From: an uncultured Candidatus Saccharibacteria bacterium
GTDB lineage: Bacteria; Patescibacteriota; Saccharimonadia; CAILAD01; BJGX01
Assembly (NCBI GenBank): GCA_964552475.1
Contig: CAZKFZ010000006.1
Coordinates: forward strand, 27 to 64,026
Length of the DNA stretch: 64,000 nt
Direction of reading: 5' to 3'
The position numbers and the translations under genes were made by a program. Every line of letters starts with the position of its first letter. The stretch's first letter is position 1. The notes under the pieces are model-generated. The model was not told the origin of the DNA. It searched no databases and was given only the letters and a program-made list of their open reading frames with translations. Of this stretch, positions 30,737 to 49,372 are shown piece by piece.

Positions 30737-30813
30737 TGGTGGCTGCGGTAGGAATTGAACCTACGACCTCGGGCTTATGAGTCCCGCGCTCTAACCAACT
30801 GAGCTACGCAGCC
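30737..30813 (-). tRNA. tRNA-Met (anticodon CAU), elongator type
   Basis: Cloverleaf read on the minus strand: acceptor GGCTGCG/CGCAGCC, anticodon loop CTCATAA, CCA encoded. G1-C72 is paired and Y11:R24 is present. Acceptor and D-arm are near-identical to E. coli elongator tRNA-Met. Confidence 0.8.
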
Positions 30814-39095: not shown

Positions 39096-40754
39096 TTAAT
39101 GCCTGCCTTTGGGAGTTTTGGTGGGGTTACCAAAGAACTCCAAGCCTTTGGCGTTTTTTAGTGTCTCTTTTAGTTCTTTTTGATGAGTGAGCATATAAAG
39201 CAAACTGCCTATGCGACGAGGCAATGATGCAGTATTGTTGGTAATAACTTTTTTGAGCTTGGGGTTGCCACTTAGCCCAGACATCTTTAACGCATTGTCA
39301 GTAGTATCGGCATACTGCACAGCCTCGGCAAAACCTCGGCCAATATCTTTGCCTTCTCTATTTTTGAGAATTACTGCGCCCTCATTATACTGTGCTCCAT
39401 TGGCAAAAAAGTTGGTTTGCCCTCCAGGTACTATTTGAGTCATGCTAAATCGCCGGATGTCGGCTGGCATAGTATGGTCAAAACTAAAGTGCCACTCGTT
39501 GGGGTGCCATACATTGGTGATTGGATACAGTTCAGGATTCGAACTTAGCTTGGCCTGTATCCACTTGGTAATCTTAAGATTTCCCCAAGTGTTATGCATT
39601 TCACCGTTCTCATCCATATATTTGCCAGCTACCGGTATAGTCATAGTAGGCGGTGAGTCTGGGCCAGTCTGAAAATAATAGCTGAGGTATTTTTTGCTAT
39701 GTGCAGCAAACATAGTAATTTGTCTGTCGCCATCGAATTGCGCCATGTACCAATCCCAACCAGCTGGGCCAGGAGCCGAAATATTGTTGGCAGCCCTCAA
39801 CACTTCTGATTGCGGATTACCGCTCAAAAATCCCCATTGATGATCAAACCACATTAAGCCCTTTTTGAGCTTTACTGTCTCGTCGCCATACTGCAAAGTG
39901 CTGCCGGCACTTACTTGTATATTGGGAATAGAATAATAAAGTGAGCCGGTGCCAGCCACTGATGGCATAGCGCCATCATCGCCTTGCAATAAATAATCTT
40001 TGCCGCCAGTGAGCTTGAGATCTAGCGCTATAATGAATGGTTTGTCGGTAGAACGGTCTACTCCACGAGCTTGTATAGTGAGTGGTGTAAGTTCTTTGCC
40101 GCCAGTACCAACTATGCTGTTTTTGCCCAACACATATTTGAATGGTTTGGCTTGGAATTCTATGAGTCCTGAAGTACCAGCAATAACTGTTGGGTCGGCC
40201 TGGTGATGCATATCACCGGCTTTGGATATACCTAGCTGGATTTCTACTACTTGGTTTTCGATATCGGTTAGGCCAAATTTCTTGGCTAGCTCTGGTGCCA
40301 AAATAGTTTGGCGAAAGAACATCAGCTCTACCCCATACTCTTGGCCGTCTTCAGCCCAAACGCTACCCACAAAGAAGTGCCAACCAACTTGGCTAGTAAA
40401 TTTGGGCTGGTGATCGCGCGGAAACTGCAAGTTGGCAGACTCTGGCATTTGGTCAAAAAACTGCGTGGTGTTGTTACCCAAAAATCTGGTAGAGATAATA
40501 TAGGCTTGGTGCGGTGTAAGACCATCAATAGCTTTTGATAGCTCGGTATATCTTTCTTGGTAATTTGGGTTGTGGCTTTGTTGTTTATCTAATAATAATT
40601 TAAGATAGGCACGCATGCGCTCGCCATAAGCCTCTGGTGAGTGTTTTTCTGATTGGATTTTTTCTTGAATATCTTTTGGAATTTTATTTATATCAAAATC
40701 TTCTAGCCAAAGAGAGTCGGCTATATATTGAGAGTTTGGGATATTGTTATGCAT
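39096..40754 (-). CDS. AttH/CrtC-like (hydroxyneurosporene-synthase / lipocalin-like) domain protein with N-terminal extension
   Basis: WFDHQWG motif resembles the conserved W-[FY]-DH-[EQ]-W-G element of the CrtC/AttH family. 552 aa; no obvious signal peptide. Confidence 0.35.
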   Translation of the reverse strand: MHNNIPNSQYIADSLWLEDFDINKIPKDIQEKIQSEKHSPEAYGERMRAYLKLLLDKQQSHNPNYQERYTELSKAIDGLTPHQAYIISTRFLGNNTTQFFDQMPESANLQFPRDHQPKFTSQVGWHFFVGSVWAEDGQEYGVELMFFRQTILAPELAKKFGLTDIENQVVEIQLGISKAGDMHHQADPTVIAGTSGLIEFQAKPFKYVLGKNSIVGTGGKELTPLTIQARGVDRSTDKPFIIALDLKLTGGKDYLLQGDDGAMPSVAGTGSLYYSIPNIQVSAGSTLQYGDETVKLKKGLMWFDHQWGFLSGNPQSEVLRAANNISAPGPAGWDWYMAQFDGDRQITMFAAHSKKYLSYYFQTGPDSPPTMTIPVAGKYMDENGEMHNTWGNLKITKWIQAKLSSNPELYPITNVWHPNEWHFSFDHTMPADIRRFSMTQIVPGGQTNFFANGAQYNEGAVILKNREGKDIGRGFAEAVQYADTTDNALKMSGLSGNPKLKKVITNNTASLPRRIGSLLYMLTHQKELKETLKNAKGLEFFGNPTKTPKGRH

Positions 40755-40839
40755 AAGAGTTATTATAGCAAACTTATGTTTTTAACAATCTCTTTTGTAT
40801 CGAAAAGAAAAAGAACTCAACATAATATTGAGTTCTTTT

Positions 40840-40859
40840 CTTGGTAGCGGGGGCAGGAT
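40840..40859 (-). repeat. partial copy 1 of the tRNA-fMet 3' end (T-stem 3' half, acceptor 3' strand, ACCA, AG) with adjacent terminator-like hairpin
   Basis: Exact 20-nt match (cttggtagcgggggcaggat) to the 3' end of the tRNA gene at 41188-41262. Preceded by hairpin gaactcaa...ttgagttc and a T-run. Confidence 0.7.
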
Positions 40860-41009
40860 GGTTCGGCTTACGCCGTACCTCCGTAAAGTGCTTGGTCAAA
40901 GCGCAAATCAATTTGCTTTTGACGCTGCGCGCTTTACTCTACCGAACCTTTGGGTTTCGAACCGCACACATTATGCAAGATAAAAGCACAACCGTAGTTG
41001 TGCTTTTAT

Positions 41010-41029
41010 CTTGGTAGCGGGGGCAGGAT
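41010..41029 (-). repeat. partial copy 2 of the tRNA-fMet 3' end with adjacent hairpin
   Basis: Exact 20-nt match. Preceded by hairpin gcacaac-cgta-gttgtgc and a T-run. It lies 170 bp from copy 1 and 176 bp from the copy inside the tRNA gene. Confidence 0.7.
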
Positions 41030-41187
41030 AGCGGCTACGCCTTCTCCGCTCATTCGTGCTCGAAACAAGTTTCTGTGCGCGAAATCGCTACGCCGAACCA
41101 GCGACATGCCAAATAAATTTGGCGTCGCAGAACCGTATCTAGCTCAATACCAAGAAAAAGACTCAACACAAGGTTGAGTTCTTTTCT

Positions 41188-41262
41188 TGGTAGCGGGGGC
41201 AGGATTCGAACCTGCGACCTCCAGGTTATGAGCCTGACGAGCTGCCACTGCTCTACCCCGCG
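41188..41262 (-). tRNA. initiator tRNA-fMet (anticodon CAU)
   Basis: CGCGGGGTAGAGCAG...GCTCATAACC...GGTTCGAATCCTGCCCCCGCTACCA is collinear with E. coli tRNA-fMet. Positions 1:72 are mismatched (C:U). A11:U24 is present in the D-stem. CCA is encoded. Confidence 0.8.
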
Positions 41263-41339
41263 TTGTCGTCAGACAACGATACATTGACCGTTGAAATATT
41301 GGTGATACTTGGAAATTATAGCGCAAAAACTATAATTAT

Positions 41340-41856
41340 TCAACCCTTGCAGCTCCCCGACCCTTAAAAGTATCAGAAAAGAAAAGCAGTTGGCTGCTTC
41401 TGTTTTGAGGACTTGCCTGACGCTTCTTAAACTTGTTTAAGAAAGGAGTCCCGCAGAAACAGAAAAGGCAACTGGTTTTATGCTTCTATATACTTTTACG
41501 GTGTCGATAGCTTTGGTTCTTTGGCTTATCAAAGAACCGCTGTCTGCGTAGGACATAAAGTCTGTGCGAACAGCACAATAAGATAAAATTTAAATTAAAA
41601 AAGGTTTCGCTCTTTTAGGGAGCAATCTTCTTTTGTATGGTTAAACCCTTACATGGAAAACTAGATCCCGGATCTGGAGCGCTCCGCTTCCAGTCCGGGA
41701 TGACGGTGAGGGGTGTTGCTGCGGGACTCCTTCCGACTTCGTTCGGAGCGTTAGACAGTCCTCACATCTAGCAATGAGATGTATTCTATTCACGTTAGGG
41801 TAGCTCGATAGCCAGGGGGAATTAGCTTTATGATATTCGAGAGTTGAGGAGGAAAG
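41340..41856. ncRNA. structured non-coding element 1, bounded by nested imperfect inverted repeats (candidate novel ncRNA or MITE-like element)
   Basis: Outer inverted-repeat arm gaggacttgcctgacgct (41407-41424) pairs with agcgttagacagtcctc (41746-41762). Inner arm ggagtcccgcag (41445-41456) pairs with ctgcgggactcc (41718-41729). Internal hairpin ggttctttg...caaagaacc (41514-41538). No ORF. Confidence 0.45.
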
Positions 41857-41862
41857 ATTGTA

Positions 41863-42255
41863 TTAACCGCCAAACAAAAAGTCTCGCCATTGTTGCCAAT
41901 TGGACTTTTCGGCGTCTATTTCTTCTTGGGTTTTTAAATTAACAGCCTCGACCTGTACTGATTGTGTGCCAACACTATCTTTTTTGACAATTACCACCGA
42001 CTCACCAGGCTTTTGCATGCCCAAGTTTTCACGCGCTAACTTGTCTTGATAACTATCAGTACGATAATAAGTAATTTTGTAACCCAATTCTTCTATTTGG
42101 GATTGCATTTGGGCAATTTGAGCTTCTAGCTCTTCAGACTTAGAGCGCAACTGATAATTCTTGCCGGTTTCGTTGGTAAGAATTGCAAACATATACAAGA
42201 TGATGATGAGGCCTATCCAAAAGGCGGCTTTGGTAAAGTTGAAAACTTTTTTCAT
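41863..42255 (-). CDS. FtsB/DivIC-like septum-formation initiator (N-terminal TM plus coiled coil)
   Basis: 130 aa. TM AAFWIGLIIILYMFAIL, then a heptad-rich segment (EELEAQIAQMQSQIEELGYKI) typical of the FtsB/DivIC family. Confidence 0.5.
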   Translation of the reverse strand: MKKVFNFTKAAFWIGLIIILYMFAILTNETGKNYQLRSKSEELEAQIAQMQSQIEELGYKITYYRTDSYQDKLARENLGMQKPGESVVIVKKDSVGTQSVQVEAVNLKTQEEIDAEKSNWQQWRDFLFGG

Positions 42256-42432
42256 TAAACTACGCCTCTGGCTTCGCTTAATAGAAAAGATTGAAAATTA
42301 TGATGCATTTTTAATAAATGGCCTAAATAAGCGAAATGGAGATGCAGAGACTTTGTTGTACTATGAAGGATAAACGATTTATTTTTCATATGTTTATTTT
42401 ACCATAAGCTTTGATAATTATTAGTTGGAATT

Positions 42433-42952
42433 GAATTTACCACCTCCTCTCGACTCTCGAACTACATTCGGTCCTCTTCCGGCTATCGAACTACTAACTC
42501 CTGTACTTGCCCTCACTTCTCGGCTCTCGAGTATCAGAAAACTAAATACCAACAAGTGTTTATTGTTCGAGGACTTGTCTGAAGCTTAGCGAGTCCCGCA
42601 GAACAGAAAGCTTATTGGTATTGAGTGCTTCTAGATATGAGCCCGAGTCGTAAGTTTTTGTCTCATCTCAATGCTTATCAAAAAGTGAGTTGGCCCTAAA
42701 GGGCCGAAACCTTTTTATTTATCAAATAATAAATTATTTATTTTATGCACTTCCTGTGCAGGGGTTCTTTGTATGAGCAAAGAACCAAACTCACCAACTC
42801 GAACTCACAACTTTATGGATTGCTCTGAATTTTCTAAGATGAAGCTGCGGGACTCCTTCCGTCTTCGATCGGAGCGTCAGACAAGTCCTCGCTTCTATCT
42901 TTAGAAAATATCTTCACAATCTTTCAGGTTGCTCGAGAGTCGGGGAGGAGGA
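42433..42952. ncRNA. structured non-coding element 2, paralogous to element 1 (same nested inverted-repeat architecture)
   Basis: gaggacttgtctgaagct (42569-42586) pairs with agcgtcagacaagtcctc (42872-42889). gagtcccgcag (42591-42601) pairs with ctgcgggactcc (42844-42855). Outermost pair cctcctctcgactctcg (42445-42461) with cgagagtcggggaggagg (42933-42950). Hairpin ggttctttg-tatgag-caaagaacc (42763-42786). Confidence 0.45.
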
Positions 42953-42965
42953 AGGAAGGGACAAA

Positions 42966-44222
42966 TTAGTATTTAAAAGTGTGTTTGTGCGACGCACGCA
43001 ACGGCTTGTCTAGTTGAGTTGGCTTAGTAGCCAATCGCTCCAACCTGGTTTGTTTATGATTGTCTTCGCTCATTTGCCACAACACAATATTTACCTGGTC
43101 TTTATCAAGAGTCAGCTCTAGCCAACTCAGCTGATTAAGCGAGACATAAGTATTGGGTAAGCCCAGGTGAGCCTTGGTGGTATATATCATCTCTACCCCG
43201 CAGCCACTATTGGCAAAAAAGCCCTCACCAAAATCATTTATAACTGGGCGGTGAGTGTGGCCGGTAATAAGGCCGATGGTATTAGACTTGTTGATCTCGG
43301 ACTTAGCTTTGGTGCGGGCAGCTTCATTGTGACCTTCACCAGCATGACCACCAGGCATTGTCTTGGCCCGAGCAAGTATTTTGCGCGCAATAAGTGCAAT
43401 AGCTGTCAATATTACTGCAATACTGCTTATAACTACGAGACTGGTATAAATAATTATGCGAATTACTTCGTTGGCAGGCATACCATAATAAGCAAATGCA
43501 CCATAGCCAACTAACAATAGTAGACCAAAGATAATAACTAGCGGTACAATCAACCACCACAGACGATTGAATATTTCTCTATACATTAGTCGTGAGGCTA
43601 CAAACTTAGCAAACTTATGTGGCTCAGCCAGATGATTAATGCCATCTAGCATACTACCTTGAGTGGCTTGAGCCATAGGTAGAGCCTCTTGTACCAAGTA
43701 TTGACCAAAAGGCTTATCGTTGGGGTCGCGCGGGTCAGTAAATGCATTGTCGCTGTCTAGCATATGACCATGCTCAAATAAAATCGACCTTGTGGACTTA
43801 CCAGTTTTGATTTTTAATTGCAGCGAAAAACATATTTGCGCGTCAAACTTGTCTATTAGTATTTGTTGCTGAGTATTGTCCCAACCCAGTCTGCCGTCGT
43901 GATTACCAACTGTAAAAATAACTCCATGATGAGATTTTTGACCAAATTCTTGGAGAGCTTTGGTTAGTCTGGGGTGAGCCAATAAAGCCTTGGTGACACT
44001 AGGTTCTTTACCAGCCCACAACTCAAAGATATCACCATTGAGAACAATATTAGCCGACTTTAGCTTGGTCAGTTCGGCAATTCTTTGCCCTATCACTTTC
44101 TCAACATTATGACTAGCCTTGGTGGCCTGACCACTCAAATGGATATCACTAATAACCAAGACCGATGTTGGCAACGTAACATTGAGAGTGAGTTGGTCTT
44201 CAACTATGTTCTTTGATTGCAT
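42966..44222 (-). CDS. membrane-associated calcineurin-like metallophosphoesterase
   Basis: VLVISDIHL and GNHDGRL metallophosphoesterase motifs. Two to three TM helices in the middle (LWWLIVPLVIIFGLLLLVGYGAFAYY...). Confidence 0.6.
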   Translation of the reverse strand: MQSKNIVEDQLTLNVTLPTSVLVISDIHLSGQATKASHNVEKVIGQRIAELTKLKSANIVLNGDIFELWAGKEPSVTKALLAHPRLTKALQEFGQKSHHGVIFTVGNHDGRLGWDNTQQQILIDKFDAQICFSLQLKIKTGKSTRSILFEHGHMLDSDNAFTDPRDPNDKPFGQYLVQEALPMAQATQGSMLDGINHLAEPHKFAKFVASRLMYREIFNRLWWLIVPLVIIFGLLLLVGYGAFAYYGMPANEVIRIIIYTSLVVISSIAVILTAIALIARKILARAKTMPGGHAGEGHNEAARTKAKSEINKSNTIGLITGHTHRPVINDFGEGFFANSGCGVEMIYTTKAHLGLPNTYVSLNQLSWLELTLDKDQVNIVLWQMSEDNHKQTRLERLATKPTQLDKPLRASHKHTFKY

Positions 44223-49296: not shown

Positions 49297-49372
49297 TGGT
49301 GGGCCTGGTAGGAATTGAACCTACGACCAATCGGTTATGAGCCGACTGCTCTAACCACTGAGCTACAGGCCC
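49297..49372 (-). tRNA. tRNA with anticodon CAU, most similar to tRNA-Ile2 (lysidine-modified)
   Basis: GGGCCTGTAGCTCAGTGGTTAGAGCAG...CTCATAA...TTGGTCGTAGGTTCAATTCC. The D-arm and variable/T-arm closely resemble E. coli ileX. G1-C72 is paired, so it is not an initiator. Confidence 0.55.

Follow-up and report, generated by a model that had tools for sequence, protein, structure and literature searches.

What are the two repeated, non-coding units of about 0.5 kb that lie on either side of the ftsB/divIC gene in an uncultured Candidatus Saccharibacteria bacterium? The question was raised by a first-pass annotation of contig CAZKFZ010000006.1 (assembly GCA_964552475.1), of which positions 27 to 64,026 were analysed (64,000 nucleotides, termed the window and numbered from its first letter). 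The repeat region is bounded on one side by a transfer RNA (tRNA) gene, tRNA-Met, at 41188-41262 on the minus strand and on the other by a phosphoesterase gene (Metallophos) at 42966-44222. The first-pass annotation regarded each unit as a single structured RNA closed by nested inverted repeats and the two units as parallel copies. Our analyses indicated a different arrangement: each 0.5-kb unit consists of one type A and one type B copy, placed head to head, of a modular non-coding hairpin element of ~210 to 280 nt. The best reading of the data is that these elements belong to an undescribed family of insertion-polymorphic, structured, intergenic hairpin elements.

All of the sequence features named in the first-pass annotation were found in place, and a repeat search of the window recovered the arms independently in both direct and inverted orientation. 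With up to 3 mismatches allowed, GAGGACTTGYCTGAMGCT had three matches in the window compared with 0.04 expected, while TCGAGAGTYGRGGAGGA had two (0.08 expected). TTCTTTG-N-CAAAGAA, the identical stem noticed in each unit with a different loop and termed H1 below, also had two matches (0.01 expected). The 12-mer CTGCGGGACTCC alone, with 2 mismatches, was not significant (four matches; 1.7 expected). On the minus strand, the left arms read as the same motif as the right arms; the nested inverted repeats hence arise because one motif of ~33 to 50 nt is present once per strand, and they represent opposed motif copies rather than helices closing a single RNA. The units are mutually inverted and not parallel, with interior segments aligning in reverse orientation. 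The four half-units are 54 to 60% identical pairwise outside the conserved blocks, in place of the ~70% given for this comparison. An open reading frame (ORF) and Pfam check bore out that the region is almost wholly non-coding, the sole credible ORFs around the repeats being the DivIC/FtsB gene (PF04977) and Metallophos.

On the strand carrying CTGCGGGACTC, termed the motif strand, each element runs in the order H0 (like H1, a small hairpin), H1, left strand of the long stem, tip motif and right strand of the long stem. H1 has the form (G)GTTCTTTG-loop-CAAAGAAC(C) and is followed by CAAAG..ACC. The base of the long stem is formed by pairing of ACCGACTCG with CGAGAGTCGG, and its right strand ends in a purine-rich flank, which pairs locally with a stretch just past the GGTTCTTTG hairpin within its own half-unit; this flank was present in both units as previously described, but a third, inverted copy was found at 42443-42465. 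The tip motif consists of CTGCGGGACTC, a variable hairpin (H2) and TCAGACA(N)GTCCTC and forms a small junction of a helix (GCG/CGC plus GGACT/AGTCC), H2 and a conserved 6-nt strand (TCAGAC). A hairpin described as an insertion in unit 1 is a genuine hairpin but proved to be the long form of H2, as opposed to the minimal H2 (GCTAAGC) in unit 2. Similarly, the paired change reported at positions 4 and 10 of CCGACTTCGTTCGG does sit in H2, but pairing there requires T11 to be bulged. In Saccharibacteria, the head of type A comprises a GTGC..GCAC hairpin plus GGTTCTTTG..CAAAGAACC and that of type B comprises AAAAAGGTTTCG plus a hairpin. Both window units and a unit in a related genome (L005, described below) contain one A and one B, head to head, with the two window units in opposite orientations. 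Small ORFs within the units were rejected as genes because the length of the motif varies out of frame (33 to 50 nt) and the related locus L004 lacks the ATG of the H1 loop.

Both units, on both strands, folded far better than shuffled sequence (z of −5.8 to −7.7); the minimum-free-energy fold used long-range helices in unit 1 and was local for the plus strand of unit 2. Double changes were detected at six of the six pairs of H2, with 53 cells compared with 20 ± 3.6 in shuffles; none of 500 shuffles reached this level, and slid controls were far lower. RNAalifold, applied to 10 type A copies, recovered H1, the base and the top of the long stem and the core helix GGACT/AGTCC, and 12 of the 26 consensus pairs in this alignment were compensated in type A copies. 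Between orthologues, paired positions changed less than unpaired positions (13% versus 18 to 27%). Conservation extended beyond the search pattern to the C after ACT, the TC before AGACA and the G after GTCCTC. These results showed that the stems drift with compensating changes while the sequence of the tip stays fixed. The covariation found in H2 and the long stem upheld the earlier proposal of a structured family with conserved helices, variable loops and compensatory changes.

The distribution of the tip motif was examined in genomes and metagenomes, the loci obtained being given L numbers. When GTDB genomes were scanned with the right-arm pattern, one related Saccharibacteria metagenome-assembled genome (MAG) was detected, with a syntenic locus (L004) and an unrelated locus (L005). 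Metagenomes were scanned with the pattern CTGCGGGACT-N(14-32)-AGACA-N(0-1)-GTCCTC, which matched 47 loci, and the motif mostly tops solitary long hairpins. At all 47, the segment between the conserved blocks varies in sequence and length and is a hairpin (H2) in most copies, and the sequences outside the blocks pair to form a long imperfect stem. A covariance model built from 31 motif copies detected exactly four copies in the window (48 to 59 bits) and no others in the 64 kb; when run on 35 loci, it found a single copy in 31 and pairs only in L004, L005, L013 and L042, those of L013 and L042 being tail to tail. Exact look-up of flanking proteins assigned loci to Coriobacteriia (including L009 and L016, which share one 2.05-Mb contig), Bacteroidota/Bacteroidales and Spirochaetota, while the Saccharibacteria loci were assigned from GTDB records. 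The neighbours at ten loci were unrelated housekeeping genes, including carB/pyrK, recR/gltA, ftsY, tsf, bipA and a thiolase gene, so that an associated gene was rejected. Consistent with the first-pass annotation, no Rfam 15 family reached threshold at the units and nothing relevant was found at E ≤ 10 in 40700-43100; an Rfam search of the related loci likewise gave no family matching at the motif. There was no match to the gapped motif in 2.9 million viral contigs, where three exact 17-mer matches were discarded as the rest of the motif was missing around each, and no BLAST match of the motif in a plasmid collection. Literature searches with motif sequence strings returned primers only or nothing, and nothing relevant was found on Saccharibacteria with miniature inverted elements. 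A sequencing-adapter or assembly artefact as the source of a constant 45-mer with variable arms was ruled out because the arms are imperfect, the elements lie between intact genes, many independent assemblies are involved and H2 varies. The motif family is widespread, occurring at low copy number in at least four phyla, and is not in Rfam.

Comparison of related genomes was informative about the origin of the units. The spacer between Metallophos and ftsB is 21 to 117 nt in L056 to L059, whose FtsB proteins are 74 to 82% identical to that of the window, compared with ~710 nt in the window, which argues that unit 2 is an insertion common only to the window and the L004 genome. The site between ftsB and the tRNA promoter is empty in L004 and L059, carries a solo type A copy in L056 at a position orthologous to that of the type A copy of unit 1 (A1), and carries the A and B pair in the window. 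This comparison of sequences indicated that both window units are lineage-specific insertions into spacers that were formerly very short, on either side of ftsB. Orthologous sites hence show presence/absence polymorphism, as expected of a mobile element, and the first-pass annotation's leaning away from mobility was not sustained. Type A copies at two different loci of MAG CAYMHI01 were 92% identical, the best intragenomic pair.

Differences between strains were also detected on short contigs (L061, L065, L067 and L069) that encode a 100% identical FtsB and differ in the arrangement of the elements. The sequence equivalent to window positions 42457-42789 is missing from L061, leaving a solo hairpin. 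In L065, the H0 of A1 is joined to the loop, body and tail of the type A copy of unit 2 (A2), followed by a reversed Metallophos gene; this is apparently the joint expected from a flip of the ftsB segment between the inverted A copies. The switch point lies exactly in GGTTCTTTG, where 9 to 10 nt are shared, and a k=31 assembly chimera is unlikely because this is too short a shared sequence. Other arrangements were present in L067 and L069. L061 and L065 originate from samples ERZ27258552 and SRR33193049.

Part of the element was also found next to a known RNA. The TwoAYGGAY RNA motif (Rfam RF01731; Weinberg et al. 2010, PMC2864571) has a match in L084 that passes the gathering score (43.7 bits; gathering score, 43) and is adjoined by the H0/H1 module, with H1/H0 on the 3′ side of TwoAYGGAY as oriented by Rfam. 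The module lies likewise beside a TwoAYGGAY match in L075, and an Aeromonas locus (L053) has a match near threshold (41.5 bits). This flanking module, a GGTTTCG hairpin plus the TTCTTTG/CAAAGAA hairpin, is also present in the window halves and is not a defining feature of the Rfam family. The window itself gave no TwoAYGGAY match even at E ≤ 10, its tips having one variable hairpin without AYGGAY. The neighbours of TwoAYGGAY-type copies were Mu-like prophage genes, with no reverse transcriptase among them.

The H0/H1 module alone is more widely distributed, occurring in Pasteurella, Aeromonas, Ilyobacter and several provirus contigs on long hairpins with other tips. In Pasteurella multocida (L054, 1490-1930) and at six places in Ilyobacter polytropus (L055, 2500-2660), the H1 module flanks other long palindromic elements, without the CTGCGGGACTC tip; that of Pasteurella is a ~420-bp palindrome with the module at both ends, located between dapF and a DUF484 gene beside xerC. 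The Aeromonas element with the H1 module had no BLAST match in Escherichia coli genomes. In IMG/VR contigs (L071, L072, L075, L076, L082 and L084), the module is often within 0.3 to 0.7 kb of the contig end and would either mark a boundary or be a repeat at which assemblies break. In L084 it is located immediately beyond the repressor end of a Mu-like prophage, and in L075 ~0.2 kb from a Mor gene. Two type II hammerhead ribozymes (1351-1423 and 2238-2309; 65.7 and 69.9 bits) are present on the same Mu-like provirus contig, L084, as the TwoAYGGAY element. In proteobacteria-like copies (L042, 7838-7885; L054, 1501-1550; L053, 1506-1555; L045; L032), a purine run after H1 mirrors the purine strand of H1, with A4GA3 and A3GA4 exchanged in concert between lineages; this would make an intramolecular triple helix possible. 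A triple helix was rejected as a trait of the family, the mirror repeat being limited to these five copies and Saccharibacteria-type copies having a direct repeat.

These observations are most readily explained by a structured element that is non-autonomous and insertion-prone and has a folded tip to which a factor encoded elsewhere binds or responds, a reading to which we assign a probability of roughly 0.55. The elements have entered the short intergenic spacers on both sides of ftsB in the Saccharibacteria lineage of the window and are sites of deletion and, apparently, of inversion between strains. The folded tip, as RNA or as single-stranded DNA, would be the recognition site for the trans-acting factor, and the transcribed strand, by analogy with TwoAYGGAY, would read 5′-long hairpin-H1-H0-3′. 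A more far-reaching version, which we regard as possible but advance only tentatively, is that the CTGCGGGACTC-hairpin-TCAGACAGTCCTC junction marks a new multi-phylum class of structured, non-coding and gene-less element, related to TwoAYGGAY through shared modules, that would spread and rearrange genomes. A conserved host or mobile-element enzyme would recognise its folded tip, whether in single-stranded DNA or in RNA that might be copied by a reverse transcriptase from another locus, and the GGTTCTTTG hairpin would be the point of recombination.

Several results weigh against the insertion-prone reading. No target-site duplication was detected in comparisons of filled and empty sites for unit 1 (window, L056, L004 and L059) or unit 2 (window, L004 and L056), the sequence shared being limited to a possible TAA at L056. 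A solo copy, as in L056 and most metagenome loci, lacks terminal inverted repeats and has unlike ends, although the paired unit 2 ends in inverted tails of ~20 bp (42443-42460 and 42933-42951). Among the 51 ORFs of the window there was no transposase, recombinase, integrase or reverse transcriptase, and no Pfam match to Y1_Tnp. The copy number is low (four in 64 kb) and the copies are old, judging from their 54 to 60% identity. The L065 joint is on a short-read contig and may be an assembly error. The invariance of the tip is partly due to ascertainment, because the scan required 21 exact bases, and diverged copies do vary; furthermore, predicted pairs that were broken between orthologues outnumbered those that were kept.

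The strand signals were also inconsistent and count against the same reading. Stem mismatches on the motif strand comprised 56 of the G.U type and 84 of the A.C type, and the latter 84 transition mismatches would be G.U on the opposite strand. The opposite strand was favoured in most lineages other than Saccharibacteria, clearly so in L008, L009, L020, L041, L042, L044 and L046, while the motif strand was favoured in the Saccharibacteria type A copies of L004 and A1 (W-41456), both L005 copies and L029. Co-directional flanking genes were opposite to the motif strand at seven loci and on the same strand at three. In the diverged L042 copy, the core helix is kept through a G.U pair that is possible on the opposite strand only. 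On this strand the tip reads GGAC-UGUCU-GA-G[H2]C-GA-GUCC, with tandem G.A pairs beside a 5-nt bulge, and would be kink-turn-like. The heads of type B, again on the opposite strand, consist of a terminator-like hairpin, GAAACC and a T-run, and a consensus scan placed terminator sites at 42690-42707 (plus) and 41625-41607 (minus), with the same layout in L004, L005, L067 and L069. The H0 of type B is hence predicted to double as an intrinsic terminator. These putative terminators and the analogy with TwoAYGGAY likewise point to the opposite strand. Only one good plus-strand promoter site was found in the scan (TTGGAA-16-TATAAT, 41309-41336), and this overlaps the palindrome of the tRNA promoter. 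The identity of unit 2 between the window and L004 was 84%, compared with 78% for ftsB and 75% for the phosphoesterase gene; this conservation and the terminator-like heads of type B count in favour of the insertion-prone reading. The element may act either as RNA or as single-stranded DNA.

The main rival explanation is a family of stand-alone small-RNA genes, a sister of TwoAYGGAY, in which the half-units are inherited vertically and occasionally duplicated, the tip is bound by a conserved protein, and differences in presence or absence reflect gene gain and loss and not mobility. This explanation, which we consider rather unlikely, is not exclusive with the insertion-prone element. It is consistent with the retention of the tip across phyla while the stems covary, the terminator-like heads of type B, a near-consensus promoter on the plus strand reading into the A1 tail, the stability of the loci across many gut samples, the greater conservation of unit 2 than of the neighbouring genes and the sharing of a module with an Rfam RNA. 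However, no promoter is conserved across the copies and neither orientation nor G.U pairs give a consistent strand. Small-RNA genes would also not account readily for insertions occupying spacers of only 21 to 37 nt in close relatives, for rearrangement at the elements between strains or for the presence of zero, one or two copies at one site among related genomes. The original proposal of one large structured RNA per 0.5-kb unit, with the nested repeats as outer and inner helices, was judged most improbable. While the minimum-free-energy fold of unit 1 does use long-range helices and A and B are head to head in all three complete units (window units 1 and 2 and L005), solo copies are usual elsewhere, with one at the unit 1 site in L056, tail-to-tail pairs occur, strain L061 retains one hairpin only and the plus-strand fold of unit 2 is local. 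The existing covariation favours local helices, there being none for long-range pairing because the arms never vary between copies.

A classical miniature inverted-repeat transposable element (MITE), bounded by the inverted tails and mobilised in trans by the DDE transposase of an insertion sequence, would explain the tails of ~20 bp at the ends of unit 2, the presence/absence polymorphism and the intergenic location. It is nevertheless improbable: the compared sites had no target-site duplication, the commonest form is a solo half without terminal inverted repeats, the conserved part is the centre and not the ends, and no matching insertion sequence or transposase was seen among the window ORFs or in the plasmid and viral searches. 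The copies are few and diverged, as the first-pass annotation had concluded in distinguishing them from near-identical MITE copies; of the signs of a MITE that it named, neither target-site duplications at the compared sites nor numerous near-identical copies in the 64 kb were found. There is similarly little to recommend the view that the hairpins are passive by-products, being mere terminators or mRNA-stabilising palindromes of 3′ untranslated regions that are spread by recombination and have a functionless tip. Many copies do lie directly downstream of genes and some flanks resemble bidirectional terminators (L014 and L026), but maintenance of a 25-nt motif in at least four phyla, including bases beyond the search pattern, is unexpected of generic terminators.

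Table 1. Location of the half-units, their parts and the intervening gene in the window
Feature	Position	Strand	Remarks
Unit 1, half-unit A1 (type A): H0, H1, long hairpin with tip, tail	41349..41580	−	Covariance model, 49.9 bits
A1 tip motif: CTGCGGGACTC - long H2 (cttaaacaagtttaag) - CGTCAGGCAAGTCCTC	41407..41456	−	Left arms plus "hairpin insertion" of the first-pass annotation
A1 H1: GGTTCTTTG-loop-CAAAGAACC, then AAAGCTATCGAC on the minus strand	41515..41538	−	Crossover point of the L065 isomer
A1 H0 (GTGCTGTTCGCAC hairpin)	41562..41578	−	
Unit 1, half-unit B1 (type B)	41603..41862	+	Covariance model, 48 bits; head GGTTTCG plus hairpin, 41603-41623
B1 tip motif: CTGCGGGACTC - H2 (CTTCCGACTTCGTTCGGAGCG) - TTAGACAGTCCTC	41719..41763	+	
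B1 tail (TTCGAGAGTTGAGGAGGA)	41836..41853	+	Outer end of unit 1, beside the ftsB stop codon
ftsB/divIC gene	41863..42255	−	PF04977; separates units 1 and 2; outside the element
Unit 2, half-unit B2 (type B)	42437..42716	−	50.6 bits; tail copies, 42443-42465; 81% identical to the L004 orthologue
B2 tip motif: CTGCGGGACTC - minimal H2 (GCTAAGC) - TTCAGACAAGTCCTC	42569..42601	−	
B2 head	42690-42716		Plus-strand reading is a terminator (GGCCCTAAAGGGCC GAAACC TTTTT)
Unit 2, half-unit A2 (type A)	42746..42955	+	59.2 bits; H0, 42746-42760; 84-85% identical to the L004 and L005 copies
A2 H1: GGTTCTTTG-TATGAG-CAAAGAACC plus AAACTCACCAACTCGA	42763..42786	+	
A2 tip motif: CTGCGGGACTC - H2 (CTTCCGTCTTCGATCGGAGCG) - TCAGACAAGTCCTC	42845..42890	+	
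A2 tail (CTCGAGAGTCGGGGAGGAGG)	42932..42951	+	Local pairing with the long-stem base, 42790-42805, with compensatory changes (alignment columns 79-86 with 228-234)

Other features of the locus were noted. The only Rfam 15 matches passing threshold in the window were three tRNAs, all of them CAT-anticodon genes on the minus strand within 19 kb (30737-30813, 41188-41262 and 49297-49372). In the tRNA adjoining unit 1, the first acceptor pair (C1/U72) is mismatched, as in initiator tRNAs. A terminator hairpin with the final 18 nt of tRNA-Met (TGGTAGCGGGGGCAGGAT) is present three times in tandem at 40809-41205, at spacings of 170 and 176 nt, and the last one alone is part of a whole tRNA. Tandem copies of the tRNA end were also found in L004 (1-400) and L059 (4174-4345), with spacers of ~130 nt kept in the related genomes; the arrangement resembles a stack of att sites left behind by small integrated elements, or else an RNA carrying a tRNA 3′ end. 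Upstream of ftsB, ~140 nt (42256-42395) separate the ATG from a −10-like box (gcttatggtaaaata, reverse complement of 42395-42415), compared with ~7 nt in L004 and L056. This insert starts with ATGAAAAATAAA, resembling a duplicated ftsB start, and holds a 44-codon ORF (42255-42389, minus strand). Two loci with an identical FtsB (L060, 2698-2882; L064, 1221-1405) have ~110 nt more than the window between the tail of unit 1 and the tRNA-Met promoter.

The genomes of Saccharibacteria and other ultra-small bacteria are tightly packed, and few mobile elements have been recognised in them. In this setting, spacers of a few dozen bases flanking a cell-division gene have gained ~1 kb of structured non-coding DNA, which varies between strains. 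That long hairpins of Coriobacteriia, Bacteroidota and Spirochaetota bear the same tip suggests an undescribed shared partner or mechanism. If the family is mobile, it would amount to an unusual kind of gene-less element, with a conserved centre and free ends; if an RNA gene, it would represent a new RNA gene family across several phyla.

Among known systems, invertons, in which inverted repeats surround a promoter near an invertase gene, differ in that no recombinase is encoded in the window and the sole orientation variant (L065) has a flip of the whole ftsB segment and not of the interior of a unit. The motif strand has the same order as the non-coding RNA of retrons (msr-msd), with small stem-loops followed by one long hairpin. 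Unlike a retron, however, the element has no adjacent reverse transcriptase (flanking genes examined; 51 window ORFs), and its closing inverted repeat encloses the long hairpin only and not the small stem-loops. ERIC/IRU and Correia elements are imperfect palindromes of 100 to 150 nt that are intergenic and transcribed, can carry promoters or terminators, can be processed as RNA hairpins and, as here, vary in presence or absence between strains. Each of these is restricted to one family or genus and is conserved over its whole length or at its ends, with a TA duplication in the case of Correia, whereas conservation is concentrated at the tip of the present element and no duplication was seen at the compared sites. 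REP/REPIN/BIME sequences of Proteobacteria, which are mobilised as doublets by RAYT, are also intergenic, structured and non-coding, are often inverted doublets, lack classical terminal inverted repeats and target duplications, and are thought to be recognised as folded single strands. REPs are 20 to 40 nt long and species specific, with a conserved 5′ tetranucleotide, tens to hundreds of near-identical copies and a RAYT gene present; the present element is ~250 nt long and has few, diverged copies, a tip that is common across phyla and no Y1 transposase in the 64-kb window.

The closest catalogued relative, by module and architecture and not by tip sequence, is TwoAYGGAY, because the H0/H1 module flanks the L084 TwoAYGGAY RNA that passes the Rfam score. 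The tip of TwoAYGGAY has two AUGGAU loops, in contrast to the CTGCGGGACTC-H2-TCAGACAGTCCTC arrangement found here. Both are long imperfect hairpins with a conserved multi-stem tip that are intergenic, have no fixed neighbours and occur in several phyla, and the same module (GGTTTCGCC hairpin; ACTTTTCTTTG-loop-CAAAGAAAAGT; CAAAAGAAA) adjoins some members of TwoAYGGAY. The present family is thereby linked to an orphan motif of Rfam.

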